Below, one piece after another: positions 24,376-61,138 of a stretch of DNA of 64,000 bases. Location of the stretch: NCBI GenBank assembly GCA_050250375.1, contig JBFWOS010000001.1:894361-958360 (forward strand). Reading direction: 5' to 3'. The first letter of the stretch is position 1; the number at the start of each line of letters is the position of its first letter. The stretch comes from Candidatus Omnitrophota bacterium. GTDB taxonomy: Bacteria > Omnitrophota > Gorgyraeia > Zapsychrales > Zapsychraceae. The notes below the pieces were generated by a model. That model saw nothing but the letters and a program-made list of their open reading frames with translations, ran no database searches and was not told the origin of the DNA. The position numbers were made by a program, and so were the translations under genes.

Positions 24376-24948
24376 ATGCCCAGAACTTTTATTGCCTTTG
24401 AAATTGATCCAGTTAATCAAAAATATCTGGCTAATCTAAAAGACCGTTTAAATTGGGGGAATGCCTCCATCAAATGGGTCAAAGCAGACAATATTCATTT
24501 AACCCTGAAATTCCTGGGTGATCTTTCTCAAAGTCAAATTGACTTAATTAAAGGAACTTTTCCAAAATTATTTACTGATTTTAATCCTGTGGCTGCTGAA
24601 ATTAACCGACTTGGTGCATTTCCGAATAGCAAACACCCGAAAGTCCTCTGGGCAGGGTTAACAGGAAAAATTGAAGCAATATCAGTAATCGTCGCCCGCC
24701 TCGAACAAGAGCTGGAATTGTTAGGTTTTCCAAAAGAACAAAAAAAATTTTCTTCTCATATCACCATCGGCCGGGTCAGATTTGAAAATAAATCGAAGAA
24801 AATCGGAGAAACGCTCCAGTCATTCTGTTTTACGCCGCCATTGCGGCAAAACTTAAATATCATCACGCTTTATGAAAGCACCTTAACCCCGCAGGGTCCG
24901 ATCTATGTCCCGCTGGTTAAAACTGAACTTGCCGATACCTCCCGTTAA
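24376..24948 (+). CDS. thpR: RNA 2',3'-cyclic phosphodiesterase (ThpR/LigT, 2H family)
   Basis: Two H-x-T-x motifs (HLTLKFLGD and HITIGR) in a protein of about 190 aa. Confidence 0.85.
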   Translation: MPRTFIAFEIDPVNQKYLANLKDRLNWGNASIKWVKADNIHLTLKFLGDLSQSQIDLIKGTFPKLFTDFNPVAAEINRLGAFPNSKHPKVLWAGLTGKIEAISVIVARLEQELELLGFPKEQKKFSSHITIGRVRFENKSKKIGETLQSFCFTPPLRQNLNIITLYESTLTPQGPIYVPLVKTELADTSR

Positions 24949-30126: not shown

Positions 30127-31593
30127 TCATTCCCCCACCTTCACCCGCCATACCGTTCCAGCGGGTGTGTCCTTCACTTCAATCCCCATGGAATCTAACT
30201 CATCCCTGATCGCGTCGGATCGTCCAAAATCTTTATTCGTCCTGGCCGCTGTCCGGTCATCGATCAACGTCCGGATCTTATGTTCATCCAGACCCTTCTC
30301 TTTGATCAGGATCTTGTCTAACGCCGTCAGAAATTCTTCCGCAGGCTCTTCGAACAAACTCATCATTTTTCCGAATTTATTTACAAAATCCTTGAACAAA
30401 CCGGCGTTGGCTTTTAAGGCCGGTGTGATTTTTTTATTAAGGGCCATGTCATTAAACAAACGGACCAGATCGAATATCGCGGCAAATGTTTTGGGTGTGT
30501 TAAAATCATCATTCAAGGCCTGGTCAATTTCTTGCCCGGCCTGGTCAATTCTGGACATAAAATCTTTATCCGCCGTTGGCCCTGTCGTTACTTTACCAAA
30601 AGATAAAATACCGTCAGCCAGACTGATGGCTGCATATATGCGTGCCAATCCCTGCATCTTTTGGTGAATGCTCTCGGAACTCATTTGCAAAGGAGAACGG
30701 TAATGAGCGCTGAGTATAACAAATTTGAGGATTTCCGGGTGGAACTGGTCCATAAAATCCCTGGCCTTGATCACATTGCCCAGGGATTTGGACATTTTCT
30801 GGTCGCCGAACTGGATAAAATTATTATGCATCCAGTATTTCGCGAACGTCTTTCCGGTCAGTCCCTGAGTCTGGGCGATTTCATTCTCATGATGCGGAAA
30901 AATCAGGTCAATGCCGCCGCCGTGAATATCAATCTGATCGCCGAAAAAACTGTGATTCATCGCCGAACACTCAATATGCCACCCCGGGCGTCCCGGCCCC
31001 CAAGGTGAATCCCACGACGGCTCGCCTGCCTTGGACGGTTTCCACAGGATAAAGTCCAAGGGGTTTCGTTTCCGCGGGTCAGGATCGACCCGGTGACCGG
31101 CCTGAAGCTCTTCAATATTCTTCCCGCTCAGCTTTCCGTAGTCCTTAAAACTGTCGATGGAATAAAAGACCGATCCTTCAATCGCGTACGCATGTTCTTG
31201 TCCGATTAAATTAGAAATAAATTTTACCATGTCTTCCATATGGTCGGAACACTTCGGATTGTGCGTATGCGCCGGCAGTTTAAGCGCGGCGTAATCTTTT
31301 TTAAATTCTTCTATATAATGACTGGAGACGTCCAGGGCATCTTTGCCCTGTTCATTTGCTTTGTTGATAATCTTGTCATCAATATCCGTGTAATTGTAAA
31401 CAAAGGTAACCGCATATCCCAGATGTTCCAGCCAGCGGCGAACCAGGTTAAAAAAGATAGCCCCGCGGAAATTGCCGACATGCAGCAGGTCATAAACGGT
31501 CGGTCCGCAGACGTACATCCTGACTTTTCCTGGTTCAACCGGATCAAAAACCTCTTTTTGGTGGGACAGGGAATTATAGATTCTCAACGGCAT
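30127..31593 (-). CDS. cysS: cysteinyl-tRNA synthetase
   Basis: HVGN (HIGH-like) motif, KMSKS, and Zn-binding Cys residues in a class I synthetase of CysS length. Confidence 0.95.
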   Translation of the reverse strand: MPLRIYNSLSHQKEVFDPVEPGKVRMYVCGPTVYDLLHVGNFRGAIFFNLVRRWLEHLGYAVTFVYNYTDIDDKIINKANEQGKDALDVSSHYIEEFKKDYAALKLPAHTHNPKCSDHMEDMVKFISNLIGQEHAYAIEGSVFYSIDSFKDYGKLSGKNIEELQAGHRVDPDPRKRNPLDFILWKPSKAGEPSWDSPWGPGRPGWHIECSAMNHSFFGDQIDIHGGGIDLIFPHHENEIAQTQGLTGKTFAKYWMHNNFIQFGDQKMSKSLGNVIKARDFMDQFHPEILKFVILSAHYRSPLQMSSESIHQKMQGLARIYAAISLADGILSFGKVTTGPTADKDFMSRIDQAGQEIDQALNDDFNTPKTFAAIFDLVRLFNDMALNKKITPALKANAGLFKDFVNKFGKMMSLFEEPAEEFLTALDKILIKEKGLDEHKIRTLIDDRTAARTNKDFGRSDAIRDELDSMGIEVKDTPAGTVWRVKVGE

Positions 31594-40569: not shown

Positions 40570-41184
40570 CTACGGATTCTTCCTGGGTATTTTAATCACC
40601 AGACGGCCTGTTTCTTTTTCCGTTTTAATTTTTGTTACATCCGCATCTTCCGGCAGCGGAACAGTCTTCATGAAACTGCCGTATGCCTGCGATTGTGAAT
40701 ACCCATTGGGATTTTTCTGTTCATTTCTCAAGGTTTGTTCACCTTTGAGCGTGATGGAATGTTCGTTAATCTGGACATCAATTTTGTCCTGGTCTAATCC
40801 GGTCATATTGAACGTAATAATATACCCGTCTTCATTTTCTCTGAAGTCAAGGTTGGTATCAAAGTTCATCATGCTGCTGACTATACCTGACCCGGGCTGA
40901 TTGGAAAGATTAAGGGATTTCTGAAAGGTCTGGTCCATTTCTTCCTGAAAGCGTTCCATATCAACGAACGGATCTTCATCAACCGTGTCGGACGGATTCA
41001 TCCGAACACGGCTGATCCCGACAACCGGCCGGGTCTTAATTGCTTCCAGTTCCTCCACTCTTTTCTTTAAGACTTCAATCTGCCTTTTTAATTCATTGAC
41101 ATCTTCTTCCGGGTACGCCGAAAGACCGGAAGACAAAAGCAGCCACCCGCTCAGCATGGCGGTATAAATAACTTTCTTCCCCAT
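40570..41184 (-). CDS. periplasmic Hsp20/alpha-crystallin family protein
   Basis: Internal Met MGKKVIYTAMLSGWLLLSSGLSA forms a signal peptide. A coiled coil follows, then an alpha-crystallin domain with the C-terminal GRLVIKIP motif. Confidence 0.65.
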   Translation of the reverse strand: MGKKVIYTAMLSGWLLLSSGLSAYPEEDVNELKRQIEVLKKRVEELEAIKTRPVVGISRVRMNPSDTVDEDPFVDMERFQEEMDQTFQKSLNLSNQPGSGIVSSMMNFDTNLDFRENEDGYIITFNMTGLDQDKIDVQINEHSITLKGEQTLRNEQKNPNGYSQSQAYGSFMKTVPLPEDADVTKIKTEKETGRLVIKIPRKNP

Positions 41185-41393
41185 ATAATTGTCTCCTCTC
41201 GATTTTAAAAAAATATAGAATTTCCTGCGGTTACAAATATTTATCATCCCCTGGTATTTTATGTCAATTCATTTTTAATTCCGGTCGCTGTCTTTCAAAA
41301 AAACATCAAAAACTTTATACTTGACGATCGGGTGTTTTTAAATTAAATTCTGTTAAATAGCTTTTATTAACTTTCTAACAAAGGATGGACCAA

Positions 41394-41603
41394 ATGGCCA
41401 AGGGTAAAGAAAAAGAAATGTTATTAGTTGGTTCCAAGACCAAAGAAGCCCTGAAAGCAGGCGGAAAAGAAACTTATAATGTTTCCTCTGATGCATTGGA
41501 TGCATTAAATGAATACGTGTACTGGCTGGTTGACCAGGCCCAGAAAAAATGTACCGCCAACGGAAGAAAAACGATCCGGTCATATGATATCCTAGCGTGC
41601 TAA
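41394..41603 (+). CDS. small histone-fold protein (DUF1931/HBb-like bacterial histone)
   Basis: MAKGKEKEMLLVGSKTKEALK...NVSSDALDALNEYV...ANGRKTIRSYDI matches the bacterial histone-fold pattern (LVV.SK.K...; ADGRKTV..RD). AAGGATGG lies 6 nt before the ATG at 41394. A strong terminator follows. Confidence 0.55.
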   Translation: MAKGKEKEMLLVGSKTKEALKAGGKETYNVSSDALDALNEYVYWLVDQAQKKCTANGRKTIRSYDILAC

Positions 41604-41621
41604 TTTCTTGAACGTGAAAAA

Positions 41622-41650
41622 GCCCGGCTGGTTTCAGCCGGGCTTTTTTT
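41622..41650. terminator. bidirectional rho-independent terminator (GCCCGGCTG-gttt-CAGCCGGGC + T7)
   Basis: 9-bp GC-rich stem and 4-nt loop, flanked by A5 upstream and T7 downstream. It sits between the convergent histone-fold and glycosidase genes. Confidence 0.8.
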
Positions 41651-43640
41651 ATTTCCGGGACCAGTGCTCCTTAAACATAAAATAAGCCTCGCGTAATCTC
41701 CGTTCAAAAGGGCTGTGGCGGCCGCTCCCCTGTCCGATAATACCGAACCATTCCTCATGGTCATATCCGTCAAAAAAGGCGGCCGGAAACTGCGGGGCCG
41801 TCTGCTGTTCATCAACCGGGTGATTATGCGTGTCTTTCCACCATTCATCCAGATATTCAAAAATAACTCCCCCGATCGAATTTCCGGCGTAGGGACCGCC
41901 CGCCTGGTTTAAAACGATATCCCTTAAATTGCCGAAATAATAATCCCGCTGGGCTTCCTCATTGGTTCGGCCCAGATTCTTGTCATAAACATCCGCCCCG
42001 TATTCCGTCACCAGGACCGGCCGGTCAAATGTCCGCTTGACCTCTTCCCACATCGTTCCAAAACCGCCCTGCCCCGGATAGGCATTGACCCCGAGAATAT
42101 CAATCGCCGGGGCATATTGGTTGTAAAAGTCAATCAAGCCCAGCCGGACATTGCCGACAGCCACCGGATGGTTGGAGTCCAATTCATGGATCATCAAAGC
42201 CACCTCATTCAAAAATTCAGCATAAGCTTGTGGATGAAGGGCCGCTTTAGTCCTGGTCGCATTGACGCCCATATAATCAAGCGGCATATTATTCTCATTT
42301 CCAAGAAGCCACATCAAAATAAACGGTTCATCTTTTAAATCCATCACCTTTTGGCGGACAATCTCCTTCATCGATGCGCGTTGGGCTGGATCCTCATAAT
42401 CAGTCCCGACCATCCAATCTGCTCCGGAACCAAGCGTGTAGGCCCCGAGGAAATCTCCGGCAATAACCCGGATGCCGTACCGCTGGTGCATATCCCTCAA
42501 CAATTCTTTATTGATCAATTGCGGATCGTACTCCGTGCGGGATTTATTGGGGATGTATAAACGCACCGCGTTTACGCCCATCTCTTTCATGATCTGAAAA
42601 TCACCAACCGGCAATTCATCAGCATCCTGAATTTCGTTACCATTCCGGTCAACCCAGGCTTCATAAGGGGCATCAATAACGCCGTTGTTATTTTTATCCC
42701 TGAACATCCAGCGCTGGTCAAAATTCGGGTCATTTTGCGGACCGATGCCGATTTCCGTCGGTCCGTAGGTTACACCATTCACCGTAAACGGTTTATCATC
42801 CACCAGCAATTGCCAGTGACCATTGCCGTATTTTACAAGCTTAACTGCTCCGTTCCCTCTTTGTTCGGCAATCTCTTCAACCGTGAGATCAGGCAGGGAC
42901 ATTATTTTCTCTTTAAAAGTTTTTTTGATAAACCGGCCCGGGTTAATTTCAATGATGTCATTCGCCAGATTCGTGTCTTCCCCATTAGTCACTTTGAAAT
43001 ACGAATCGCTGTATTCCAAATTTAATGACGGATAATCCCGGCATAGCCGGCTAATGGCGCCGATGGCGGCTGGAGCAATGTACCAAACAAAACTCTGGTC
43101 CCGGGCCCAGCCGGCTGATCGTGGAAAATGCACGACCGCTGAATAATAAGCCTTGATGGCCTGTAATATATGCCCTGATCTCTCCAAAACAACCCCGGTA
43201 AAATAAGCTTTGACCCCCGGGTCATCCGAAACGGTGGCCCATTTATAGAAGGCGAGTTTCTTATTGTCAGAGTCCAGTAATTTCCAATGGGATTCGTTTA
43301 ACAATCCCTGGTCCGACATACTTTTAAAATCAGGTTCGGCGCGGACTGCGTTCTGGTTCGGGTATATCCCCGCGCCGACATCTCGTTTCAACGTCTCTTT
43401 ATCCCGGATTCGGTATTCGTAATCGGCTTTTCCCAAATGTAGAAATTCGCCATATTCGGCATAGTCCAATCCGTCGTTTTTTCCCGTGTCCGAAATAACA
43501 AACTCTTGATCCGGAAGGGAGAATCCTTCAAGCATTTTATTTAACAATGGATCATTTGAATTCAGACGCGGTTCCCGGCAGGCAAGGCAACTGGCAAGAA
43601 TCAAAAATATAAATAACCTTTTAGGGATAAACTGATCCAT
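41649..43640 (-). CDS. secreted TIM-barrel glycoside hydrolase (GH2/GH5-like)
   Basis: Signal or lipoprotein-like N-terminus (LILASCLAC). GVNAVRLY, WLLGNENN (acid/base-like) and VTEYG (nucleophile-like) motifs. Confidence 0.65.
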   Translation of the reverse strand: MDQFIPKRLFIFLILASCLACREPRLNSNDPLLNKMLEGFSLPDQEFVISDTGKNDGLDYAEYGEFLHLGKADYEYRIRDKETLKRDVGAGIYPNQNAVRAEPDFKSMSDQGLLNESHWKLLDSDNKKLAFYKWATVSDDPGVKAYFTGVVLERSGHILQAIKAYYSAVVHFPRSAGWARDQSFVWYIAPAAIGAISRLCRDYPSLNLEYSDSYFKVTNGEDTNLANDIIEINPGRFIKKTFKEKIMSLPDLTVEEIAEQRGNGAVKLVKYGNGHWQLLVDDKPFTVNGVTYGPTEIGIGPQNDPNFDQRWMFRDKNNNGVIDAPYEAWVDRNGNEIQDADELPVGDFQIMKEMGVNAVRLYIPNKSRTEYDPQLINKELLRDMHQRYGIRVIAGDFLGAYTLGSGADWMVGTDYEDPAQRASMKEIVRQKVMDLKDEPFILMWLLGNENNMPLDYMGVNATRTKAALHPQAYAEFLNEVALMIHELDSNHPVAVGNVRLGLIDFYNQYAPAIDILGVNAYPGQGGFGTMWEEVKRTFDRPVLVTEYGADVYDKNLGRTNEEAQRDYYFGNLRDIVLNQAGGPYAGNSIGGVIFEYLDEWWKDTHNHPVDEQQTAPQFPAAFFDGYDHEEWFGIIGQGSGRHSPFERRLREAYFMFKEHWSRK

Positions 43641-43724: not shown

Positions 43725-44138
43725 TTAATACCGGTAGTTGATATTCGTCAGACAACGTTTGCCCTGAAAAAACTTTTGCGCGAATTTTTTCACCACTTCA
43801 AGGTCATACGCTTTGCAACTGAACACATCAAGATACACAGTATTTGTGAGGTTAGCAAAATGAGCCGATATGAGGGAAGTTTCGATCAGCTGAACCATTG
43901 AAAATCCGGCCACCCGTTCTTCTTCTCCAAAATGGACAACTTGTGTTTCACCGAACCGTTTCATCTCGATCAATTCGCACAGTTCTTTCACAAATTGTTT
44001 GATCTTGCCCGCATCACGGATGGTCTGGGGATCGCATTCATAAATATCAATGCTGCTGGCAATGCCCCAGACATTCTGCTGTTTTGCTTTTTTTAATATT
44101 TCTTTTTTAGTCGGGATTGTTTCTTGGACTAGGTTCAA
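43725..44138 (-). CDS. S-adenosylmethionine decarboxylase proenzyme (SpeH/class 1B-like)
   Basis: Size and the IETSLISAHF motif resemble the L.ESHIS.HTWPE self-cleavage region. Confidence 0.55.
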   Translation of the reverse strand: MNLVQETIPTKKEILKKAKQQNVWGIASSIDIYECDPQTIRDAGKIKQFVKELCELIEMKRFGETQVVHFGEEERVAGFSMVQLIETSLISAHFANLTNTVYLDVFSCKAYDLEVVKKFAQKFFQGKRCLTNINYRY

Positions 44139-47964: not shown

Positions 47965-48484
47965 GTTTAACGCCTTTGAGATAAATATCCACGTTCAAAC
48001 TGGCCTTGACCGTCGGTTGTATTGTTTCATCTCTGACAATATCAAAACTGCGCACCCGTACGGCCCCCCTTTCCAGATGGTTCAACGCGTCCAGAAATTC
48101 ACCCAGATTAGAATAATCCGACTGTATGTTGAGGTCCAGGGATTGATAAGGAAATTTAACCCGCTTTCTGTCGGTTTTTTCATCAAGACTGATCGTAATG
48201 AATGTTATGCCGTTTTCTTCTCCCAGCCGCATGATTTCATGGATGACCCCGGTGACTTCTTCCTTTGTCACCGGAGCGCCGGCCATTAATTCATTTTTTG
48301 TTTCGTGAAGGACTCCCCTGACCAGGGCCATATCATTTTTAATCCGGAATGTTTCTTGTTCGAGAAGGATAATTTCCTTTTCCTTGGGACGATAGACAAA
48401 GACGAACAATAAAAATAAGGCGCACAGAAAAACGGTCATGGCCGCAACTTTTAATAAACTTTGTTCCCCGTTGAATAATTTCAT
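47951..48484 (-). CDS. PilO/GspM-like inner-membrane assembly protein
   Basis: Single TM segment, coiled coil and periplasmic domain. Size and position are those of PilO or GspM. Confidence 0.55.
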   Translation of the reverse strand: MKLFNGEQSLLKVAAMTVFLCALFLLFVFVYRPKEKEIILLEQETFRIKNDMALVRGVLHETKNELMAGAPVTKEEVTGVIHEIMRLGEENGITFITISLDEKTDRKRVKFPYQSLDLNIQSDYSNLGEFLDALNHLERGAVRVRSFDIVRDETIQPTVKASLNVDIYLKGVKRGKK

Positions 48485-50172
48485 TCTGATTCTCCGGTCG
48501 ACACATCGCAGATGATCTCAAACTGGGCCAAATTGATATCATCCGTGTCTTTCTTCGCTTCAACCAGCCCGACATTCGGGCAAATCCCGTCCTGCAGATT
48601 CCGCATGAACTCAGACAACGCGGCCCCGCTGTCCTGCCCTTCTTCCGGCGTAATATATCCTTTCAGCCTGACCTGATGATCGGCCATACTCATCTGATGC
48701 AAATACATCCGGGGCAAAACCTGATGGCTTAACCCTCTTAAGAATGCTCCCCAGGATGGACGCTGGGCCAGGTGCTTGGAAAAAATCAGTTCTTCCTTGA
48801 ACCTCTTCATTTCCGGAACAAGGCGCTGATAGTCCCTTGTTACGGTCATATGGTTTTTTCTGGATTTATTTAACCGCCATGAAACGTTCACCAGCATAAA
48901 AATGACTAAAGAAAAAACACACAGCACGCTGACCGCCGTGAATATTTTTCCCGGCAGGCCCCCTTGCGTCTGGCGTGCCTTGTTCGGAAGAAAATTGATG
49001 TCATCCGGACCATGCAGGACAGCGCCAATCGCGAGGTCTAACCGGTGCGAAGGGCTTTTTTTAATATCTGACGTGATCCCTGACAGACCGGGCACATTGT
49101 CGACGATTTCCTCTACACGGATGTCAACATCCAGCTCCTGGGATAAATGCTGTTCAAGGCCTTTCATCCGGGCCAGTCCGCCCCGCAGGATTACTTTATG
49201 GATTCGTTCTCCCCGCTCCCCCTGATAAAATTCGAGCGAGCGGTCAATTTCATTCACCAGCAATTCAAGTTTAGGCCGCATCATGGATAACAGCTGGTTC
49301 GGCGTAATTCTCTCTTCGGCCCAGGAAACCTGGCCGACCTCGGGGATGCCATATTTAATTTTCATCTGTTCGGCTTCCCCAAACGTCAACTCCACCTTGC
49401 CCTTGGGGGTAACCAGGGCTTTGGTCAGACTGAGCGTGATATCGTTTCCGCAGAAAGGAAGCTTGCGGGAAAATTCAATCTTTCCATTTTTATAAACGTT
49501 AAACTCCGTGATCGTCCGTTCCATTTCAATAACGGCAAAAATTCCGGCGGAGGCACCGACGGAATTCATAAATATATTTTCCAGGGCTAATGAAGAAGGA
49601 ATAACCGCTGTCAACCGGCAGTCCGCCAAATAACCGCGATGACCGTCAGAGGAATTAAAAAAGGCGTTAATCAGGTTAATATTTTCCCGGGTGGTCGTGG
49701 CCGCTAATACATTGAGCTTGAGGTGTTCTCCATCCATACTCTTATCCAGGACTTTATAATCCATCACGGCTTCATCAAGAGAAAACGGAAACTGGTTCTT
49801 GGCCCCCCAACGGACCGCCTGGGCCAGTTCTTCTTCCGGCATGACCGGCAGGCGAATCTTGGCCACGGATGTCCTCGGGCAATTGACCACACAGATCACA
49901 TCCGCATTTTTCTCCGTGACGCCTTTAAAAACTTCTTTCAGTCCTTTTATGACATTGACTTTATAATCGATCTTTTCGATGTCCGTCATCTCTGCGCACG
50001 CGCTATAAACCAAATGCAGATTGTCTTTTTCTGAAACAAACTGGACCAGCTTGATTGAACCGGATCCGATGCTGACACCGATCAATGACCGGTTCTTTTT
50101 ATTTATAAATTTTCTCTTTTCCATCTCTTTAACCTTGTAACTCTTTCCAGGAGCCGCCCACCGAACTGACAA
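48481..50172 (-). CDS. PilM-PilN fusion (GspL-like) assembly protein
   Basis: N-terminal actin-like PilM domain (IGVSIGSGSIKLV), a mid-protein TM helix (IFTAVSVLCVFSLVIFMLV) and a PilN-like periplasmic tail. Confidence 0.7.
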   Translation of the reverse strand: MSVRWAAPGKSYKVKEMEKRKFINKKNRSLIGVSIGSGSIKLVQFVSEKDNLHLVYSACAEMTDIEKIDYKVNVIKGLKEVFKGVTEKNADVICVVNCPRTSVAKIRLPVMPEEELAQAVRWGAKNQFPFSLDEAVMDYKVLDKSMDGEHLKLNVLAATTTRENINLINAFFNSSDGHRGYLADCRLTAVIPSSLALENIFMNSVGASAGIFAVIEMERTITEFNVYKNGKIEFSRKLPFCGNDITLSLTKALVTPKGKVELTFGEAEQMKIKYGIPEVGQVSWAEERITPNQLLSMMRPKLELLVNEIDRSLEFYQGERGERIHKVILRGGLARMKGLEQHLSQELDVDIRVEEIVDNVPGLSGITSDIKKSPSHRLDLAIGAVLHGPDDINFLPNKARQTQGGLPGKIFTAVSVLCVFSLVIFMLVNVSWRLNKSRKNHMTVTRDYQRLVPEMKRFKEELIFSKHLAQRPSWGAFLRGLSHQVLPRMYLHQMSMADHQVRLKGYITPEEGQDSGAALSEFMRNLQDGICPNVGLVEAKKDTDDINLAQFEIICDVSTGESE

Positions 50173-50602
50173 TATTAGGCGGTCCCGCCGTCAGCGAAAC
50201 TTCCTGCTGAATTTCTCTTTCGGAATTATGGCTTACTCCTCTGGCCGTGATCAGAATATTTGCCCCTGAAGTTTCAACCCAGACCGTGTACCGGCCGTCT
50301 CCCAGTGTTTCTTCTTGAGGATCGTTCGAACCGGGCCCGGGATCAGCCGGATAAGCCGACGTCCGCCAGCTCCCGTCCGTCGAACCGTCGGGGGCCGTTG
50401 TTTGCAGGTACCAGACCGCCTTATTCAGCCCGGCCTCGGCAAAATAAAATGCCCTGACCGTATCTGTCTGGGCATCCAGCAATTTTGTATTGCTCATCAC
50501 CAGGCTTATATAAGCCGAAGCGACCACCGTCAGAAAAACCATAAAAATCAGCGTCAGCAGCATGGTTGCCGCCCGCTTGCGTGATAGTCTGTATAATTTC
50601 AT
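50129..50602 (-). CDS. PilX/GspK-like minor pilin
   Basis: Hydrophobic N-terminal helix followed by the AEAGL motif of PilX_N. Confidence 0.55.
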   Translation of the reverse strand: MKLYRLSRKRAATMLLTLIFMVFLTVVASAYISLVMSNTKLLDAQTDTVRAFYFAEAGLNKAVWYLQTTAPDGSTDGSWRTSAYPADPGPGSNDPQEETLGDGRYTVWVETSGANILITARGVSHNSEREIQQEVSLTAGPPNIVSSVGGSWKELQG

Positions 50603-51117
50603 TATAAATTTCTCGGCCTCACATTAGTCCGCATTCTTACCGTTGAGTCATTCCGGCTTAAGGTCCAATCCAAAGTAATTAAATTATTGTTCCGGTCAAA
50701 AGGAAAATTAACCGGAGATATTAAATTTCTGACAAGGACTTTTCCGGCCCCGTAACTGAGATCTCCCTCGGCAAACTTAATCTGATAATTGTCTTCTGAA
50801 TAAGGTGGATTTGGTTCAGGGTCGTCCGGGCTGTACAGATAAACCCTGAAATTCACATCGCCGCTTCCCATGTCCGCGGTAAAGGAAAGGCTGCTTTCTG
50901 AAATATCATCAATGCTCTTTGCCTGGACAAGATAACGCGTAACCTGATCAATCGCCTGGGCCGCGTCTGTCCTGTTTGAAATCCGGTCGTAACCGTTTTC
51001 AAAGATACTTGTTCCGGTCGTATAAATCAAACCGATCGTAAAAATCAGAACCCCGGTAACCAGGACGCTCATGATCAGCTCGGTAATCGTAAATCCATGC
51101 TGGGTCGATATCCTCAT
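50602..51117 (-). CDS. minor (pseudo)pilin with class III signal peptide
   Basis: MRISTQHG|FTITELIMSVLV, a prepilin cleavage and methylation motif. Confidence 0.75.
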   Translation of the reverse strand: MRISTQHGFTITELIMSVLVTGVLIFTIGLIYTTGTSIFENGYDRISNRTDAAQAIDQVTRYLVQAKSIDDISESSLSFTADMGSGDVNFRVYLYSPDDPEPNPPYSEDNYQIKFAEGDLSYGAGKVLVRNLISPVNFPFDRNNNLITLDWTLSRNDSTVRMRTNVRPRNL

Positions 51118-51138
51118 AACTTTCCTCGCCGGGGCTAT

Positions 51139-51522
51139 TTAATAATCATAATCCGCCAACAACGTGACCAGTTCTACATTATGATCGACCCCTTTATCTG
51201 TCCAGTACACCTTCACATTAACCTGCTTGGGATCACCGGCAACGGTCACTTCCCGGTCAAAATCGCTAAAATCGCCCCCTACATTGGTCCGGGCCGCAGA
51301 CATTGAATCAATATCCGCATATGATCCCGCATCCTTGATTTCCTCCATCGCTTCCTGACCTAAACTGATGGCTATCGCCGTATATTCATTGTCTGAATCC
51401 AGCGTCGTTGTCATGCTGAACAGACTGAACACGGCGGTCACTCCGGTTGCCAACAGAACCATCGTGATCATCGCCTCCAGGAGGGTGAAACCTTTTCGGT
51501 CACTACGACTCAATCTGTTCAT
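51139..51522 (-). CDS. minor (pseudo)pilin
   Basis: Internal start MNRLSRSDRKG|FTLLEAMITMVLL, a prepilin motif. The ORF track extends to 51579. Confidence 0.7.
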   Translation of the reverse strand: MNRLSRSDRKGFTLLEAMITMVLLATGVTAVFSLFSMTTTLDSDNEYTAIAISLGQEAMEEIKDAGSYADIDSMSAARTNVGGDFSDFDREVTVAGDPKQVNVKVYWTDKGVDHNVELVTLLADYDY

Positions 51523-51544
51523 CGGATCAAAACACTTTCCTGTC

Positions 51545-51994
51545 TTACCATCCCAATCCATTGGTGACAAAAGGATCATCGGCCTGATCCCCTAATAGCT
51601 GGCCCGTTTCGTCTTCGATACCCGTGATGTCATAGACCCGGTTGACCCCGGCGCTGAATATGACATAAAATTGTTCGTCATCCGACAAAATGTAGTTGTA
51701 CTCCTGCTGCGGTAAAAACGGATCATAAAGGATTTCGTTAACGATCTTCGGAGTCGCGTCCAGAAGCTGGTCCGCGATGACTGAATCCGAAGTGTTCGGG
51801 TACTCTTTGGGAACCTGGTTCACATAAAAAGATTCAATCGCGGCCTGGACTGTCCTGAGTTCCATCTGGGCCTTTGAAACATTGGCCTGGTCCTGCATCC
51901 CCTTAAACCTTGGAATCGCAATCCCGATTAAAATGGAAATGACAACCATGACCACCATAAGTTCAATCAGCGTAAAACCTTTTTTGTTCTTCAT
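51545..51994 (-). CDS. major pilin / GspG-like pseudopilin
   Basis: MKNKKG|FTLIELMVVMVVISILIGIAIP, the canonical type IV pilin N-terminus. Confidence 0.8.
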   Translation of the reverse strand: MKNKKGFTLIELMVVMVVISILIGIAIPRFKGMQDQANVSKAQMELRTVQAAIESFYVNQVPKEYPNTSDSVIADQLLDATPKIVNEILYDPFLPQQEYNYILSDDEQFYVIFSAGVNRVYDITGIEDETGQLLGDQADDPFVTNGLGW

Positions 51995-52024
51995 ACTTCC
52001 CCCCGGATTTTGTTAATAAACATT

Positions 52025-53239
52025 TTATCTTTGTATCGTCTTGACCATATCAAACAAGGGCAGCAACATTGATGCCATAATAAAACCGGCAAGGCCGCCC
52101 ATAATAATGATGAGAACCGGCTCTATCAGCGTCAGCAGCCGCCGGATCGAATGTTCAATCGATTTATCGTAAAAATCAGCGATCTTGTCCAGCATGTCAT
52201 GCAGCCGGCCGGTCTGTTCTCCGACGGCGATCATCTGGGTGACATCCGGCGGGAACCGTCCGCTTTTAACCAACGGTTCTGTGACCGTGGCCCCTTCTTC
52301 TACACTTTTGCGGGTGTCGTTCACCACTTTGGCCATGACGACATTCCCGATGGTGTCCCGCGTGATGCTGAGCGCATAAAGCATTGAAACCCCGCTTTTC
52401 AAAAGCGTGGCCAGCGTACGGCAAAAGCGGGCGATCACCGTCTTGTAAATAAGATCACCGATGACGGGAATTCTAAGCTTGAGATCGTCAAATTGCGCTC
52501 TTCCTTGTTTCGTTTCGATATAAAATTTGACCAGCCCGACAACAAAAGAGACCACCAAAATCAAAAGAAACCAATACTTCCGAATTCCCACCCCGAGAGA
52601 ATGCAGGATGAGTGTGGGTAAAGGTATAGTTACATCAGCCCTTGTGAATATTTCCATAAACTTTGGTATTACAAAACTTATGATAATTATTATGACCGCA
52701 ATGCTGACAAAAAGCAATATGGACGGATAAAATATTGCATTCTTTATTTTTTGCCGGATGTCCTCTTCGTGTTCGATATAAATCGCGTAACGATTGAGGG
52801 TCGGGCTTAATGTCCCGCTGACCTCGCCGCTTTTAACCATATTAATGAACAGAGCGGAAAAAACCCGCGGAAACTTCGCCATGGATTCCGATAAAGAGGT
52901 CCCCGACGCAATCAATTCACTGACATCATGGATTACTTTCTTGAAACCGGTATTTTTAATCTGCCGGTTCAACGTCTTCAGGCTGGTCAATATCGGCACT
53001 CCCGCTTCCAGCATATTCGCCAGCTGGATGCTGAAAAATATCATCTCCAGGGTTTTGACCTTTTTTACAACCCCGCCGGGATTGACGGCACCGTTTCCAT
53101 TCTCGGCCTCCTGAATAAACGTCGGGACATATCCCATGGTGTGTAATCGTTTGGCCAGGGCATCCTGCGTAGGGGCTTCCATCGTTCCCCGGATCAGGTT
53201 TCCGTTATCTTCTCTCGCTTTATAAAGGTATGTGGGCAT
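52025..53239 (-). CDS. GspF/PilC platform protein
   Basis: Two T2SSF-type repeats and three TM helices. Confidence 0.9.
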   Translation of the reverse strand: MPTYLYKAREDNGNLIRGTMEAPTQDALAKRLHTMGYVPTFIQEAENGNGAVNPGGVVKKVKTLEMIFFSIQLANMLEAGVPILTSLKTLNRQIKNTGFKKVIHDVSELIASGTSLSESMAKFPRVFSALFINMVKSGEVSGTLSPTLNRYAIYIEHEEDIRQKIKNAIFYPSILLFVSIAVIIIIISFVIPKFMEIFTRADVTIPLPTLILHSLGVGIRKYWFLLILVVSFVVGLVKFYIETKQGRAQFDDLKLRIPVIGDLIYKTVIARFCRTLATLLKSGVSMLYALSITRDTIGNVVMAKVVNDTRKSVEEGATVTEPLVKSGRFPPDVTQMIAVGEQTGRLHDMLDKIADFYDKSIEHSIRRLLTLIEPVLIIIMGGLAGFIMASMLLPLFDMVKTIQR

Positions 53240-53242
53240 GTC

Positions 53243-54859
53243 TTATGCTTCCTCTTGCGTAACCCGCAAAATTTCTTCTCGGGTCGTGATTCCCTGGTCG
53301 ACTTTTTTCATCCCGTCTTCACGCAGCGTAATCATCCCGGAATTAACCGCTTCCTGATTTATATCTTCCGATGAGGCCTTCTTGATGATTAACTGACGCA
53401 ACGGATCAGTAACGCGCATCAGCTCATAAATGCCTGTCCTGGTTTTATAACCGGATTGATGACATTTGGGACATCCCTTTCCGGAACAATCCTGACAAAT
53501 CCGGCGGACCAGCCGCTGGGCGAGCACGCCCGTCAGCGATGATGAAATCAAAAAAGGCTCAATGCCCATATCGATCAACCGGGCAACGGCCCCGGCCGCG
53601 TTATTGGTATGCAGGGTGGCCAAAACCAGATGTCCGGTCAGCGCCGCCTGCACGGCAATCTCGGCCGTTTCCAGATCCCTAATTTCCCCGACCATGATGA
53701 TGTCCGGATCCTGCCTGAGGATAGAACGCAGGCCGGTGGCGAATGTCAGGTCAACGCTCGGGTTGATCTGGATCTGACGGATTCCCTTTAATCTATATTC
53801 GACCGGGTCTTCAATGGTGACAATATTTTTCTCCGGGGTATTGATCTCGTTCAATGAGGCGTACAAAGTCGTCGTTTTACCGCTTCCCGTCGGACCGGTG
53901 ACCAGGATAATCCCGTTTGGCTGGTACAATAATTTAATATATTTTTCGAGAACCTCTTTCTGAAATCCGGTCTCTTTTAAATGTAAAAGCATGCTCCCCT
54001 GATCGAGAAGACGCATCACGATATTTTCCCCGTAAATGGTCGGCATGCAGGAAACACGGATATCAATCTGACGGCGCCCTATCTGTAACTGGAAACGGCC
54101 GTCCTGGGGTTTACGCCTCTCGGCAATATTCATATTAGACAAAATTTTTATGCGGGAAATAATCGCCGACTGCAGGTGCCGGGGAAAATCACTCTGTTCA
54201 CTTAAAACACCGTCGACCCGATAACGGACTTTCAGGGCGTCTTCATCCGGCTCAATATGGATATCCGACACCCCTTCGGAAACAGCCTGCATAATGGTCA
54301 TGTTGACCAGTTTAATCACCGGCGGTTCTTCACCGATATTTTTAAGCTGGTCCGCTTCCAAGTCGTCCTCTCTGAACAAGGGCTTTTGCTCTTCCAGACT
54401 CCGGATGACTTCCTGCATCGTGCCTTTCACCGTATAATGTTCATCAATCGCCTTTTGAATCTCTTTCTCCGTCGCGATGGCCTGTTCCACCGTCAGCCCG
54501 GTCCTGAGCATGACCTCATCAAGGGCCAATAGATTAAAAACATCCGCCATCACGCAGGTCAGCGTACTGCCGATTTTTAAAACCGGGATGATCTGGTGTT
54601 TCCGGGCCAGATCTTCCGGGACGAGTTCGATCAGTTTCGGATCGATCAAGTGGCTGTTAAGATCAATCCGCGGAATGCTCATTTGTTCCGCCAGAAAATT
54701 CACCATATCCTCTTCTGACACAAACCCCGTCTTGATCAGCGATTTACGGACCGATTCACCGGACTTCACGGCACTCTGGACCTTCATCCATTGATCATCC
54801 GTGATGATGTTATGCTCCAGGAGCATTTCCCCGAGCGATTTTTTAATTTTTCTGGACAC
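53243..54859 (-). CDS. GspE/PilB/MshE-type assembly ATPase with an MshEN-like N-terminal domain
   Basis: Walker A GPTGSGKTTTL and the tetracysteine motif CQDCSGKGCPKC. The N-terminal 150 aa carries two LGxxLxxxG(I/V)(I/V)...Q-like motifs (SLGEMLLEHNIITDDQ; SLIKTGFVSEED). Confidence 0.9.
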   Translation of the reverse strand: MSRKIKKSLGEMLLEHNIITDDQWMKVQSAVKSGESVRKSLIKTGFVSEEDMVNFLAEQMSIPRIDLNSHLIDPKLIELVPEDLARKHQIIPVLKIGSTLTCVMADVFNLLALDEVMLRTGLTVEQAIATEKEIQKAIDEHYTVKGTMQEVIRSLEEQKPLFREDDLEADQLKNIGEEPPVIKLVNMTIMQAVSEGVSDIHIEPDEDALKVRYRVDGVLSEQSDFPRHLQSAIISRIKILSNMNIAERRKPQDGRFQLQIGRRQIDIRVSCMPTIYGENIVMRLLDQGSMLLHLKETGFQKEVLEKYIKLLYQPNGIILVTGPTGSGKTTTLYASLNEINTPEKNIVTIEDPVEYRLKGIRQIQINPSVDLTFATGLRSILRQDPDIIMVGEIRDLETAEIAVQAALTGHLVLATLHTNNAAGAVARLIDMGIEPFLISSSLTGVLAQRLVRRICQDCSGKGCPKCHQSGYKTRTGIYELMRVTDPLRQLIIKKASSEDINQEAVNSGMITLREDGMKKVDQGITTREEILRVTQEEA

Positions 54860-56516: not shown

Positions 56517-57681
56517 GCGTAGTTCCCCCATTGCTGCCTGAGATCGGCACCCAAAAACAGAACCGGCTGCCCTTGGTGATTTCCGACTCAACCCAGATCT
56601 TTCCTTTATGCTGGTGGATGATCTCTTTGCAGATGGCCAGTCCCAGGCCCGTTCCGCCCTTCTCGCATTTCGCGGCATCTTCCAGCTGCTGGAATTTTTC
56701 AAAAAGTTTGGGGATATCCGATTTCTCAATACCCGGTCCTGTGTCTTCAACAATGACTTCCAGTTTATGGTCATGATTAACCGCCCGGATGACAATCCCT
56801 CCTGTTTTTGTAAACTTGATGGCGTTGTTCACGAGATTATTTAAGACCTGGCTGATACGGTCTGTATCAAAAACCGCTTCCGGCACATTCGGGTCTATCT
56901 CTGACTTCAAGAATAAATTTTCTTTCTGGGCGGCGGGGCTGTTCACCTGAATGACTTCCTGGACCAATTTATTCACGTCGTTTGGCTGCGGTTTCATTTC
57001 AATCCGGCCTGATTCCAGTTTGGACAGGTCGAGGATATCATTGATCAGCCGCTTTAACCGGTCAACATTGACTTTGGCTTTGTTTAAAAAATTATTCTGG
57101 TCCGCGCTTAAGGTCCCGGACGTTTCGCTCATGACGATATCAATCGCGGCCTTGATGGAGGCCAAGGGTGTACGCAGCTCATGCGAAACAACGGAAGTGA
57201 ATTCACGCTGTTTCTCAAACATGGCGGATAACTTCATGTTTAACCCTTCGAGCTCTTTATTCTTTTTCTCGGTGATTTCAATCAGGTCTTTATTTTCGAT
57301 CATCAAATTATAATGATTGATCGCTTCCTGGACAGATGTCTTGAGGTCAGGACCGTTCCAGGGCTTGTTGATAAAACGATAGACTTCCCCGATATTGATC
57401 GCGTCCTCGGCCGCCTGAAGATCGGTGTATCCGGTAAATAAGATGCGCATAATGTCCGGATTTTTCGCTTTGACCTTCGTCAAAAACTCGACACCGGTTA
57501 TATGCGGCATCCGCTGGTCGCTGATCACGACTTTGATTTTTTCCCGGCCAATGATATCCAGGGCTTCCTCAGCGTTTGTTGTCACGACGACCCCGTAAGA
57601 TTCGCTGATAAAAAGCCGTTTCAGCGAATTCAATATGTTTTCTTCATCATCCAGAAACAAGACATTTATTTCTTTACTCAT
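56503..57681 (-). CDS. REC-HisKA-HATPase hybrid (response-regulator histidine kinase), paralogue 1
   Basis: N-terminal REC (VLFLDDE...VVISDQRMP...FTGY), H-box VSHELRTPLASIKAA, and a G-box/HATPase_c region. Confidence 0.85.
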   Translation of the reverse strand: MSKEINVLFLDDEENILNSLKRLFISESYGVVVTTNAEEALDIIGREKIKVVISDQRMPHITGVEFLTKVKAKNPDIMRILFTGYTDLQAAEDAINIGEVYRFINKPWNGPDLKTSVQEAINHYNLMIENKDLIEITEKKNKELEGLNMKLSAMFEKQREFTSVVSHELRTPLASIKAAIDIVMSETSGTLSADQNNFLNKAKVNVDRLKRLINDILDLSKLESGRIEMKPQPNDVNKLVQEVIQVNSPAAQKENLFLKSEIDPNVPEAVFDTDRISQVLNNLVNNAIKFTKTGGIVIRAVNHDHKLEVIVEDTGPGIEKSDIPKLFEKFQQLEDAAKCEKGGTGLGLAICKEIIHQHKGKIWVESEITKGSRFCFWVPISGSNGGTTHDTK

Positions 57682-58861
57682 GATTTTCTACCCCGTTTTT
57701 CGGACGATTGCCTTTCAGCGGCAGTGTAAAATAAAAATGGCTCCATTCATTTAAGGAGGATTCAGCCCAAATGCTTCCCCCGTGAAGCCGGATAATGTCA
57801 CGGCAGATGGCCAGACCGATCCCGGCTCCCCCCGCCATTCTTTTTTCAGGACTGCCGATTTGATGGAATTTATTAAACACTTTGCTCAAATCAGTTTCCG
57901 GGATCCCGACGCCTGTATCCTTGACACACACCTGCACCTCATCCTTGTCCTGGATGATCCGGCTGGTAATCAGAACCCCGCCTTTTTCCGTGAACACAAT
58001 CGCGTTGTCAATCAGGTTGCTCATCACCGTCTTGATGCGCTCCCCATCCATGGATATCAACGGAATCCCCTCTTGGAGATCAGCGTTAATGGACAATTTT
58101 TTATTGGCAGCTTCAGGCATAAACCACTTTAACTCTTGTTTGATGATATCGTTGATATCATTGGGTTTAATATCCAGATCCAGCGTTCCCGATTCAAGCG
58201 AGTTCATATCAAGCACGTCATCACTCAAACTTTTAAGACGATCAATATTTTTCTGGGCTGTATGAACAAAGACTTTCTGATCTTTATTCAGCGGACCGGG
58301 GGCTTCACTCGCCAATATTTCGACAGCACTTTTGATGGAAGCCAGGGGGGTGCGCAATTCATGCGATACCGTAGAAATAAATTCCTGCTGAATCTTTTGC
58401 AATGCCCTCAATTCCCGGTTAATTGCCTCCAGTTCCTGCGATTTTCGGCGCATATCTTCAAAAAGCCGTTCATTCTCTTCACACAAATTATAATGCTGGA
58501 GCGACTGCCGGATGGCCGCCTTGAATTCGGCCGTGTTAAACGGTTTGGTTAAAAAGCGGTATACCTCACCCATATTGATCGCCTGTTCCGCGATTTCAAA
58601 TTCTTCGTGCCCGGTCAGCAGGATCCTGACAATATTCGGGAACCTGTTTTTTACTTCTCTTAAAAAATGAATGCCGGGTATGACCGGCATAAACTGGTCG
58701 CTGACAACCACCTTGATCTTTTCTTTTCTCAAAATTTCAAAGGCCTCTTCCGTTGATTTGGTCGTGATAACCCCGAACGGCCAGTCTAAAAATATTTTCT
58801 CAAACAGATAAAGGTCGCTGTCTTCGTCATCGATAAATAGAATATTAATTTCTTTGGACAC
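57674..58861 (-). CDS. REC-HisKA-HATPase hybrid, paralogue 2
   Basis: Same architecture (ILFIDDE...VVVSDQFMP; VSHELRTPLASIKSA; GGAGIGLAICR). Confidence 0.85.
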   Translation of the reverse strand: MSKEINILFIDDEDSDLYLFEKIFLDWPFGVITTKSTEEAFEILRKEKIKVVVSDQFMPVIPGIHFLREVKNRFPNIVRILLTGHEEFEIAEQAINMGEVYRFLTKPFNTAEFKAAIRQSLQHYNLCEENERLFEDMRRKSQELEAINRELRALQKIQQEFISTVSHELRTPLASIKSAVEILASEAPGPLNKDQKVFVHTAQKNIDRLKSLSDDVLDMNSLESGTLDLDIKPNDINDIIKQELKWFMPEAANKKLSINADLQEGIPLISMDGERIKTVMSNLIDNAIVFTEKGGVLITSRIIQDKDEVQVCVKDTGVGIPETDLSKVFNKFHQIGSPEKRMAGGAGIGLAICRDIIRLHGGSIWAESSLNEWSHFYFTLPLKGNRPKNGVENHE

Positions 58862-58893
58862 CTTAGAACTCCATCCCTACCGTCTTGCCGGTT

Positions 58894-59961
58894 TTAATTA
58901 TCCTTATGATTGATGGGCAACATGATGATAAATGTTGTCCCTTTACCCAGCACGGACTCCACACTGATTTCTCCGCCGTGTTTTTTAATAATATCGTAAC
59001 TGATGCTCAGGCCTAAACCTGTGCCTTGCCCAACCGGTTTGGTGGTAAAAAACGGGTCGAACATCTTCTTTAAATTCTCTTCGGCAATGCCGACCCCGGT
59101 ATCGCTGATCTCGGCATAAATATATTCATCTTTTCTATAAACCTTGACGAATATTTCACCTTTTTCTTTGATGGCCTGCGCGGCATTGACCAGCAAGTTT
59201 AAGAAGACCTGCTGAAGCCGTTGTTTCCTCCCTTTTATTAAAGGCAGATCCGGATCAAATTCTTTATTCAGGCCCGCTTTGTATTTGATTTCATTAAACG
59301 CCAGCCGGATCGTCTCTTCAATGATCGCTTTCAGGTCAACATCTTCCAGGCCTTCTTCATCCGCTTTGGAAAACACCCTCAAATCCGCAACGATATTTTT
59401 AACGCGCCTGACCCCGTCTTTGGTTTCTTTAAACAAATTTGTGATATCACTGAGGATATAATCGATTTCCGCTGTTTCCTGGGCGTTCAGTATTTTTTCT
59501 ATAGCCGGCCCGATTAAATCCGTTTGCGTTTTTACTTTCTTTTCCTTTAATTCCTGGACTGCGTGAATCACGGTCAGAAATTGCTTAACGTAACCTTCCA
59601 GGACTTCAATATTGCTTTCAATAAACCCGACCGGGTTATTGATTTCATGGGCCACCCCGGCGGCCAATTGACCGATCGAGGCCATTTTCTCCGATTGAAA
59701 CAACTGCATTTTCATATTCTTGAGGTCATTGTGAGTCTTTTGAAGATCCTGCAGCATTGTTTTCATCTTCTGGTTCGATTCGAATAATTCTTTGGAACTA
59801 AGCTCAATCGAATGTTCCAGTAATTCACGGTCACTGTCAAACGAACAATACGCATCACTGACGGCATCAATAAACCCTTTCCATTCATCTGAGAGCTGGA
59901 TATCAGCACCGTGATACTTCTTCAACTGCCGTCTAACTAACGTGTGTAACTCTTTCGCCAT
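58894..59961 (-). CDS. cytoplasmic orphan histidine kinase (HisKA + HATPase_c, unknown N-terminal domain)
   Basis: H-box [16 protein letters not shown] and HATPase_c. No TM segment. Start at an internal ATG so that it overlaps the FIST gene stop by 1 nt (TGATG). Confidence 0.8.
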
Positions 59962-61106
59962 CAAACTTTCTCCGAGAATGTTGTAATGGTCATCGTCTGG
60001 TTGTGGAGCTGGCATTCCTTAAAATCTGCTCCGAACGGGGCGATTTCCCCGTAAGAATAAAATCCGGTTAAGATGCTCTGGCCCCCGACAACATCCCGGA
60101 CCCCTTCGACTTCCTCTTCAGTCCTTTGCTTGAGGATCAGTTTTCGTCCGACACAGCTGATCAGGATCGAAAGTTCCGCATTCATTGAATCCAGCGGAAC
60201 CAGGCTGTTCTTGGCCGCTCCGACCGCTCCGTCAACCAACCGGTTAAAATTCGCTTTCATCAACCGGACCGTACTATTTTCCGGAATGTCCCCGGCGAAT
60301 GTCATACTCTGTTCTTTCTCATCCACCGCCAAGATGGTGCGGACCACTTCTTTTTCACCGCTTTTTGTCGACAGGCTCAACGGAAACAATAAACCGGTTG
60401 CCGGCAATCCCTTGGCATGTTCACCCAAATATTGTTTGTAGAGATTTAAAGCCAGCTGGCCGTCCAGTTCATATAATTTATTACACCTTGATTTTGTCAC
60501 GACCCGTTCAGGACCAAAAGAATCCCATCCTCCAAGAGAACCGTACCCCACCTTGATGTTATTTCCATAAAATCCGACCGCGACCGCCCCTTCTTTATAT
60601 ACTTCTCCATCAGAAATAATGAACGTTTCTTTAAACCGGGCGGCATCTCCTGACAAGCCTCCCGAGACGGATATTTTCCCCAGCAGTTTATGGTTAAAGC
60701 CCCGCACCAGTTCACTGCCGTTCACGTTAATCCCCTCAGAGAGGACAAAAATATGCTTAAGATCATCCGCGTTTAATTGCTGCGCCAGGTTCCCGCCGGC
60801 CTCATAACTGTTATTAATATTGGTTATCTGCTGATGGACACACTTAATCTTTGTTTTCTCAAAATGAACAGCCGTCAGGACCAATGAATCATCATGAACC
60901 TGGGTGCCGTAAATCTCACCGGCCGTTGAACACCCAATCCAACTGGCGTTGGGATATATTTTCTTTATTTCTTGAAACTGTTGTTTCTCTTTTATAAGGG
61001 CCGTGCTGCCGAATAAGATAACTAGTTCAACACCGGAGCCGTCCGGGCTGGATAACGCGGGAGACCAACCTTTTTCTTTCGTCCAGATTCTTTGTTCTAT
61101 TTTCAT
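59961..61106 (-). CDS. FIST-domain sensor protein
   Basis: FIST_N signature WIGCSTAGEI and FIST_C FYSYGEIAP, in a protein of about 380 aa. Confidence 0.75.
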   Translation of the reverse strand: MKIEQRIWTKEKGWSPALSSPDGSGVELVILFGSTALIKEKQQFQEIKKIYPNASWIGCSTAGEIYGTQVHDDSLVLTAVHFEKTKIKCVHQQITNINNSYEAGGNLAQQLNADDLKHIFVLSEGINVNGSELVRGFNHKLLGKISVSGGLSGDAARFKETFIISDGEVYKEGAVAVGFYGNNIKVGYGSLGGWDSFGPERVVTKSRCNKLYELDGQLALNLYKQYLGEHAKGLPATGLLFPLSLSTKSGEKEVVRTILAVDEKEQSMTFAGDIPENSTVRLMKANFNRLVDGAVGAAKNSLVPLDSMNAELSILISCVGRKLILKQRTEEEVEGVRDVVGGQSILTGFYSYGEIAPFGADFKECQLHNQTMTITTFSEKV

Positions 61107-61138
61107 GATCGCACCCCTTTAATAAATGTAAGCCGCCA

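Follow-up and report, generated by a model that had tools for sequence, protein, structure and literature searches.

It was only in 2023-2025 that bacterial histones came to be accepted as genuine chromatin proteins, and the lineages looked at so far are few. In the alpha3-truncated histones only a few residues of the third helix are left, and alpha2 falls 4-5 residues short of its length in nucleosomal histones (Schwab 2024, PMC11390915). Face-to-face (FtF) histones assemble into a closed tetramer and carry a conserved R48, N52, RxTxxxxD and K16, with further Lys residues at positions 12, 14 and 20 of their sequence logo; in bacteria they have been described from Bacteriovoracia (PMC11390915). 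HLp of Leptospira perolatii (PDB 9QT0, 9QT1 and 9QT2) is a stable tetramer that wraps approximately 60 bp of DNA; its interface residues are R49, S52, N53, R55, T61 and F63, with a clamp between R55 and D62, and in the crystals it contacts DNA through A13, S14, K15, K17, K21, T27, G29, T56 and T57 (Hu 2025, PMC12701072). The FtF histone of L. interrogans is abundant and essential (PMC12701072, PMC11390915). We report here on a 69-aa histone gene in a 64,000-nucleotide stretch (hereafter the window) of contig JBFWOS010000001.1, assembly GCA_050250375.1, which is labelled Candidatus Omnitrophota, and we consider it likely that the product is an alpha3-truncated bacterial histone of the FtF subfamily, i.e. 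that of HLp and the Bacteriovoracia singlets, which would act in the nucleoid, probably as a tetramer that wraps DNA.

Other described proteins used for comparison are the 'bacterial dimers' of the HBb type, which belong to the class Bdellovibrionia and lack R48 and N52 (PMC11390915) and of which HBb (Bd0055) from Bdellovibrio bacteriovorus (PDB 8CMP and 8FVX) is an alpha3-truncated, DNA-bending representative; Thermococcus kodakarensis HTkC (PDB 9F2C), an alpha3-truncated FtF histone from an archaeon; and DUF1931 proteins (PF09123), e.g. Aquifex aeolicus Aq_328 (1R4V) and that of Thermus thermophilus (1WWI), which share the histone-fold superfamily and are approximately 140-aa doublets without DNA-binding residues (PMC12701072). 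With the present locus, a well-supported histone of FtF type is added from a wastewater/groundwater lineage that bears the label Candidatus Omnitrophota, and this histone is conserved in at least six species-level genomes. This source is the only new point; descriptions of the family, the fold and the probable mode of action had been published before, and the locus reveals no new kind of protein or mechanism.

Fold, closest relatives and subfamily

The open reading frame (ORF) at 41394..41603 (plus strand, stop codon included) is assigned as an alpha3-truncated, FtF-type histone gene on the basis of the reading frame, PDB matches, AlphaFold2 and conservation. From ATG 41394 it translates into MAKGKEKEMLLVGSKTKEALKAGGKETYNVSSDALDALNEYVYWLVDQAQKKCTANGRKTIRSYDILAC, exactly the 69-aa product given in an earlier reading of the same DNA (hereafter the original prediction). 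The single-chain AlphaFold2 model, with a predicted local distance difference test score of 84.9, has helices at residues 13-21 (alpha1), 32-55 (alpha2, 24 residues) and 63-67 (alpha3, 5 residues), and the predicted structure is that of a histone fold in which alpha2 is shortened and alpha3 is cut to five residues. A basic tail (residues 1-8, MAKGKEKE) precedes alpha1, and loop L2 (N56-G-R58-K59-T60) lies between alpha2 and alpha3. Foldseek against the PDB ranked HLp first (root-mean-square deviation, rmsd, 1.3-1.4 Å; template-modelling score, TM, 0.88-0.89; 42% identity) and also matched HTkC (rmsd 1.7-1.8 Å, 40% identity) and HBb (rmsd 1.8 Å, TM 0.82-0.85, 33% identity). These best fold matches are all alpha3 histones, and the nucleosomal HMfA/B fit poorly (rmsd 4.3-4.5 Å); by its helix lengths and its PDB neighbours the predicted fold falls in the alpha3-truncated class.

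HLp is the closest relative of known structure also by sequence and by profile. Using phmmer against the PDB, HLp (9qt0) was matched over residues 1-65 with an E value of 3.4e-9 and 39.8 bits (approximately 42-45% identity), HBb with 2.4e-4 and 24.5 bits, and HTkC with 2.6e-4. The corresponding values for a profile of 44 family members were 2.1e-15 and 59.6 bits (HLp), 1.5e-7 and 34.4 bits (HBb), and 2.1e-7 and approximately 34 bits (HTkC). The bacterial histone fold of the original prediction is borne out by these sequence matches to HLp and HBb, by the three helices of the AlphaFold2 model and by the bacterial and archaeal histones among its PDB neighbours.

Some homologues in databases carry the name 'histone H3/H4' (JGI) or 'DUF1931 domain-containing protein' (NCBI), and the PDB molecule of 9qt0 is likewise automatically named DUF1931. 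Together with a weak match to Pfam DUF1931 (E 0.15), which reaches E < 0.01 in six of the 44 family members, these names would suit a histone fold with a non-chromatin function, for instance as a DUF1931-like protein or as a specific co-factor of transcription. We regard this as very improbable: the match reaches 12.7 bits where the cut-off is 21.8 and spans 33 of 138 profile positions (21-53), a weak similarity in alpha2; DUF1931 proper consists of doublet pseudodimers without DNA-binding residues, whereas the window protein is a 69-aa singlet that retains all of them; and the 'DUF1931' protein of 9qt0 is HLp, which binds and wraps DNA (PMC12701072). The DUF1931 membership proposed in the original prediction is accordingly abandoned, the name on the relatives being an automatic one.

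For the subfamily, HLp residues were mapped onto the window protein via the phmmer alignment, and residues were counted in the 44-member alignment, in 120 close homologues and in 102 singlet representatives (50% identity). The RxTxxxxD signature is present as R58-K-T60-I-R-S-Y-D65; R58, T60 and D65 do not vary in any of the 44 sequences and correspond to T57 and to the R55/D62 clamp of HLp. G13, S14, K15, K17, K21, N56, G57 and K59 are invariant in the same alignment. Of these, G13 takes the place of the HLp contact A13 and S14 that of S14, and K15, K17 and K21 align with the same-numbered DNA contacts of HLp, which supplies the alpha1 lysines of the FtF logo (K16 among them). K59-T60 of L2 likewise belongs to the retained contacts with the DNA backbone. 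N56 aligns with HLp N53, i.e. N52 of the FtF logo, and is invariant in all 120 close homologues as well. At position 52, which corresponds to HLp R49, the window protein has Lys and 26 of the 44 aligned sequences have Arg; positions 52 and 56 are occupied by R/N in 63 and by K/N in 57 of the close homologues, and by R/N in 88 of the 102 singlet representatives, none of which has the S/D of HBb. Further likeness to HLp lies in the helix lengths, the truncated alpha3 and the short basic N-terminal tail (MAK... here, MAQ... in HLp). When the query and 140 representatives at 50% identity were scored against the three structures, HLp was best for 124, HTkC for 9 and HBb for 8 of the 141, and in a neighbour-joining tree the family lies with HLp, apart from HBb. 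Because of these interface-residue and best-score counts the protein is filed, as judged from sequence, with the FtF histones and not with the HBb-type dimers or DUF1931.

The alternative that deserves most weight is a dimer-only, HBb-like histone, of which one dimer would bind approximately 15-20 bp and bend the DNA in the manner of HU/IHF, with neither tetramer nor wrapping. The window protein shares with HBb the Ser-Lys at the start of alpha1, the RD clamp, a GRKT context in L2 and a C-terminus that continues past the clamp Asp, and its fold match to HBb is good too. Several of its features weigh against an FtF assignment. Lys52 replaces the Arg of the FtF logo, and S52, T61 and F63 of HLp are replaced by Ala55, Tyr64 and Ile66. 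L2 reads RKT (RTT in HLp) as in HBb, HTkC and nucleosomal histones, while the FtF logo has no conserved Lys there, and L1 has a three-residue insertion relative to HLp, because of which the HLp contacts T27 and G29 have no clear counterpart. Four residues (ILAC) follow the clamp D65, three more than in HLp, so that the short end typical of FtF histones is missing; in the close homologues 3-5 residues follow this Asp, and in HLp and 43 of the 102 representatives one does. In the canonical FtF histone D4GZE0 the carboxylate at the C-terminus forms a pair with R48 from the opposite dimer, a contact that is not stated to be obligatory (PMC11390915). To this can be added that Pfam PF00808 (CBFD_NFYB_HMF) scores 20.4 bits (E 6e-4) against a cut-off of 21.4, with 31 of the 44 family members matching at E < 0.01, and that NCBIfam archaea_histone scores 19.1 bits against a cut-off of 50.

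In spite of these points we think a dimer-only histone unlikely. HLp is ahead of HBb by 15-25 bits in sequence and profile scores (25 bits for the family profile; identity to HBb is approximately 33%), and positions 52 and 56 do not match those of the 'bacterial dimers': the Asn that this class lacks is invariant, and a basic residue always occupies position 52 (Lys52/Asn56 in the window protein), whereas HBb has Ser/Asp. HTkC, a crystallographic FtF tetramer, likewise has GRKT in L2, and it has KR at the position of the interface Arg, although it differs from the window protein in being archaeal, in lacking an N-terminal tail, in having Glu at the N52 position and in its lower score (21.7-24.4 bits). 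Moreover, the published classification places Bacteriovoracia histones with the FtF class and those of Bdellovibrionia with the dimer class (PMC11390915). The Bdellovibrio-type (HBb-like) assignment of the original prediction has thus been replaced by the FtF one, HLp being nearest by sequence, profile and fold and the FtF residues Lys/Arg52 and Asn56 being absent from the HBb type.

Among the representatives at 50% identity, many of those with the best scores are tandem doublets of the same histone fold, 118-132 aa long (P0241-P0262), and singlet and doublet forms therefore coexist in the subfamily; one doublet (L040, 118 aa) is encoded on a contig labelled as a Methanobacteriota archaeon.

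Proposed assembly and function

By homology, two chains would form the usual head-to-tail histone dimer, and two such dimers would then come together as a closed tetramer, with L2, alpha3 and the C-terminal end of alpha2 as contact surfaces. Around it would run a basic rim made up of S14/K15, where the helix ends pair, of K17 and K21 on alpha1, of K59/T60 in L2 and of the MAKGKEKE tail. The tetramer may be expected to bind the DNA backbone without sequence specificity and to wrap approximately 60 bp, and the protein would then be an abundant organiser of the nucleoid. The analysis shows the fold, the signature residues and the constraint, while dimer, tetramer, wrapping and abundance are inferred from homology. 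Our analysis makes it very probable that the protein is a DNA-binding histone acting as a nucleoid protein, and a near-consensus, conserved promoter, a strong ribosome-binding site (RBS), a strong terminator and extreme purifying selection are indirect signs of such a role. With respect to tetrameric wrapping as opposed to dimeric bending, we lean with some hesitation towards wrapping.

With Lys52, Cys53 and a C-terminal extension of 3-5 residues, the subfamily may have an assembly unlike that of HLp, and a tetramer that is sensitive to redox state or altered in some other way is one possibility. The Lys at the position of the interface Arg, the RKT of L2, the extended C-terminus and the conserved Cys also make it a natural variant in which to ask what decides between tetrameric wrapping and dimeric bending. 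Cys53 (41550-41552) lies at the C-terminal end of alpha2 beside residue 52, the presumed dimer-dimer residue, and is conserved in 37 of the 44 sequences; HLp has Thr. Its position presumably recalls that of H3 Cys110 at the H3-H3' interface, and a redox role for Cys53 would be pure speculation.

The gene, its expression signals and selection

The histone ORF ends with TAA at 41601-41603 (plus strand). MAK... is the N-terminus of every histone homologue, and an in-frame ATG at 41385, which lies inside the RBS, is missing in the relatives L003 and L004 (AAAGGAAAG/AAAGGAAGG); the start was for these reasons placed at 41394 and ATG 41385 was rejected. Upstream, an HSP20 gene (40570-41247, minus strand) is divergent, and downstream a GH2-like gene (41649-43640, minus strand, 663 aa) is convergent, so that the histone gene is necessarily monocistronic, as the original prediction had it; the RBS and the GC-rich hairpin with seven T residues that it had described were likewise recovered, as specified below. 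HSP20, the GH2-like gene, a CHASE kinase and a response regulator are all on the other strand and have no obvious functional relation to the histone. In contrast to HLp, the gene has no SMC, MAP or DUF350 neighbours.

A putative sigma-70-type promoter (41321..41349, plus strand; pattern scan, 9 of 12 matches) consists of a -35 element TTGACG (41321-41326), a 17-nt spacer and a -10 element TAAATT (41344-41349), is preceded by an A-rich stretch and would give a 5' untranslated region of approximately 38 nt. TTGACG, the spacing and a TAAATT/TACATT -10 element are kept in eight of nine related loci, whereas the intergenic surroundings diverge. As read from the sequence, the RBS is AAAGGA (41380..41385, plus strand), 8 nt before ATG 41394, and it is conserved in all related loci that can be aligned at that site.

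Behind the gene, folding, a pattern scan and covariation identify an intrinsic terminator (41617..41650) that is probably bidirectional. Its GC-rich stem of 9 bp (GCCCGGCUG/CAGCCGGGC, 41622-41630 and 41635-41643) encloses a GUUU loop and is flanked by a run of five A residues (41617-41621) before and seven T residues (41644-41650) after it. The 61-nt region folds with -30.1 kcal/mol (z = -5.7; none of 200 shuffled sequences folds as well), and across seven related loci the hairpin persists, with three of its pairs showing compensatory changes. The T run is overlapped by the stop codon of the GH2-like gene (41649-41651, minus strand), and read on the minus strand the hairpin is followed by U5; because of the flanking A and T runs and this convergent stop codon, one hairpin probably terminates both the histone and the GH2-like gene. 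Taken as a whole, the histone gene forms a transcription unit of its own whose expression signals are consensus-like.

Purifying selection on the gene is very strong. Relative to related genomes the histone gene has 11-31 synonymous and 0-1 non-synonymous codon changes, and in the same genome comparison the flanking HSP20 and GH2 genes have 74-87% DNA identity. The short ORF (69 codons) and a 76-codon shadow ORF on the opposite strand could suggest a chance ORF, i.e. an annotation artefact without a protein product. This reading, the probability of which we take to be negligible, is already refuted by the pattern of conservation; it also sits badly with more than 550 homologues in a large protein collection, with an identical protein encoded on 18 public contigs, with the conserved promoter, RBS and terminator, and with the confidently predicted fold. 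Over all 11 genes compared, the window is identical to JBFXCX010000003.1 (GCA_050181705.1) and to a Logan contig. A tblastn search of the window matched the histone gene alone, i.e. no paralogue, and nothing credible was found in it with an E. coli HU query; no relative was present among the viral contigs scanned with the family alignment for a phage origin.

Distribution, lineage and other genes in the window

Histones with 85-100% identity come from genomes labelled Candidatus Omnitrophota or 'bacterium' (JAGOSC01, HKST-UBA08/13, HK-STAS-OMNI-3/4 and JAUIER01). Next are those of many Bacteriovoracaceae and Halobacteriovorax (75-87%), followed by Acidobacteriota, Verrucomicrobiales and Planctomycetia (56-62%). 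The Bacteriovoracia singlets, e.g. Halobacteriovorax marinus OUR96845.1, belong to the same orthologous family, their 75-87% identity being over the fold; they share with the window protein the MLLVGSKTKEALK and ANGRKTIR blocks, a KKC/KRC motif and a DIL(A) C-terminus. They differ in that many Halobacteriovorax histones have a Lys/Ala/Thr-rich N-terminal tail of 15-30 residues compared with 8 residues in the window protein, in that the L1 insertion (GKET) of the window protein is common to only some Bacteriovoracaceae, and in that their loci have no synteny with the window locus, the host of which is labelled Candidatus Omnitrophota and not Bdellovibrionota. Tailed orthologues of Halobacteriovorax and Bacteriovorax (e.g. 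MAKKKATKKAATKKKSSAKKK) are found at L009, L015-L017, L019, L020, L022-L025 and L028, and the window clade has MAKGKEKE only.

The significance for lineage that the original prediction attached to the gene is smaller than implied, since the family, including the Halobacteriovorax and Bacteriovoracaceae members, is found in the surveys of 2023-2025; the Omnitrophota-labelled source is new. Specifically, OUR96845.1, which is identical to the L019 sequence, is listed in Hocher 2023 (Supp. Table 1), so that the H. marinus orthologue had already been surveyed, and the tailed histone E1WYC3 (H. marinus SJ) is mentioned by name in Schwab 2024 (Supp. Fig. 19; PMC11390915). As far as the published histone surveys could be searched, Omnitrophota appear in them only with a different, 113-aa, IHF-linked type.

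Among the genes of the window, CysS (30127-31593) was the single universal marker identified. Its best named matches are Omnitrophota-labelled (100, 71, 63, 58 and 57% identity), followed in kind by Marinamargulisbacteria (59%) and Bacteriovorax/Halobacteriovorax (55%), which is compatible with the NCBI label of Omnitrophota and not decisive for it. Rfam and tRNA scans of the window were empty, i.e. no rRNA or tRNA gene was found. In the neighbour-joining tree, histones labelled Omnitrophota and histones of Bacteriovoracia are interspersed, and synteny around the histone gene is confined to the close clade and does not extend to Bacteriovoracia loci. The similarity of the histones between the two groups could be due to horizontal transfer, to relatedness or to plain constraint on a 60-residue fold. 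The intermixing in the tree, and a histone 82-87% identical to that of Bacteriovoracia with CysS at only approximately 55%, point toward transfer; yet the fuller scenario, in which an Omnitrophota lineage uses a horizontally acquired Bacteriovoracia-type FtF histone as a main chromatin protein, in a subfamily that may assemble unlike HLp, appears doubtful to us. Alternatively, the 'Omnitrophota' label could be wrong, or the clade could be related to Bdellovibrionota. Both Omnitrophota and Bacteriovoracia are thought to be predators or parasites of other cells.

Bacteriovoracia-type histones (76-91% identical) were also seen under the labels Lysobacterales, Sulfitobacter sp. (on a 2.0-Mb contig) and Flavobacteriaceae (L007, L012 and L029). 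These labels give the impression of errors in binning or naming, and some caution is therefore due over the Omnitrophota label as well.

An S-adenosylmethionine (AdoMet) decarboxylase gene (43725-44138, minus strand) stays beside the histone gene across the Omnitrophota-labelled clade. In L001, L003 and L004, where the intervening GH2-like gene is missing, it is directly convergent with the histone gene, and the same terminator hairpin faces it instead of the GH2-like gene. Histone and polyamine synthesis genes both concern the neutralisation of DNA charge, and their linkage may reflect shared ancestry. The HSP20 gene has a 225-aa product whose long N-terminal extension contains a hydrophobic, signal-like stretch; in related contigs the gene is called at 195-225 aa, and its product is 62-68% identical between genomes that have a 100% identical histone.

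Elsewhere in the window, a class I (NADPH) HMG-CoA reductase gene (3649-4920, minus strand; TIGR00533, 363 bits, with the equivalog cut-off higher, at 441.8) points to a mevalonate pathway, a route not often found in bacteria; a literature search for a link between Bacteriovorax marinus and this pathway, as a hint to lineage, gave nothing usable. A type IV pilus or type II secretion-like cluster (48481-54859, minus strand) includes a PilM-like protein (563 aa), a PilC/GspF homologue and a PilB/GspE-type ATPase with an MshE-like N-terminus of the kind that binds cyclic di-GMP, with several small ORFs in between. A run of signalling genes (57674-63097, minus strand) codes for a NosP-like (nitric-oxide-sensing) protein, hybrid histidine kinases with NosR/NahK-like parts and a member of the T2SS-associated histidine kinase family. 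Finally, an RtcB-family RNA ligase gene (22025-23212, minus strand) and a gene for a LigT-like 2',5' RNA ligase/phosphoesterase (24376-24948, plus strand) lie approximately 1.2 kb apart and are a possible RNA-repair pair.

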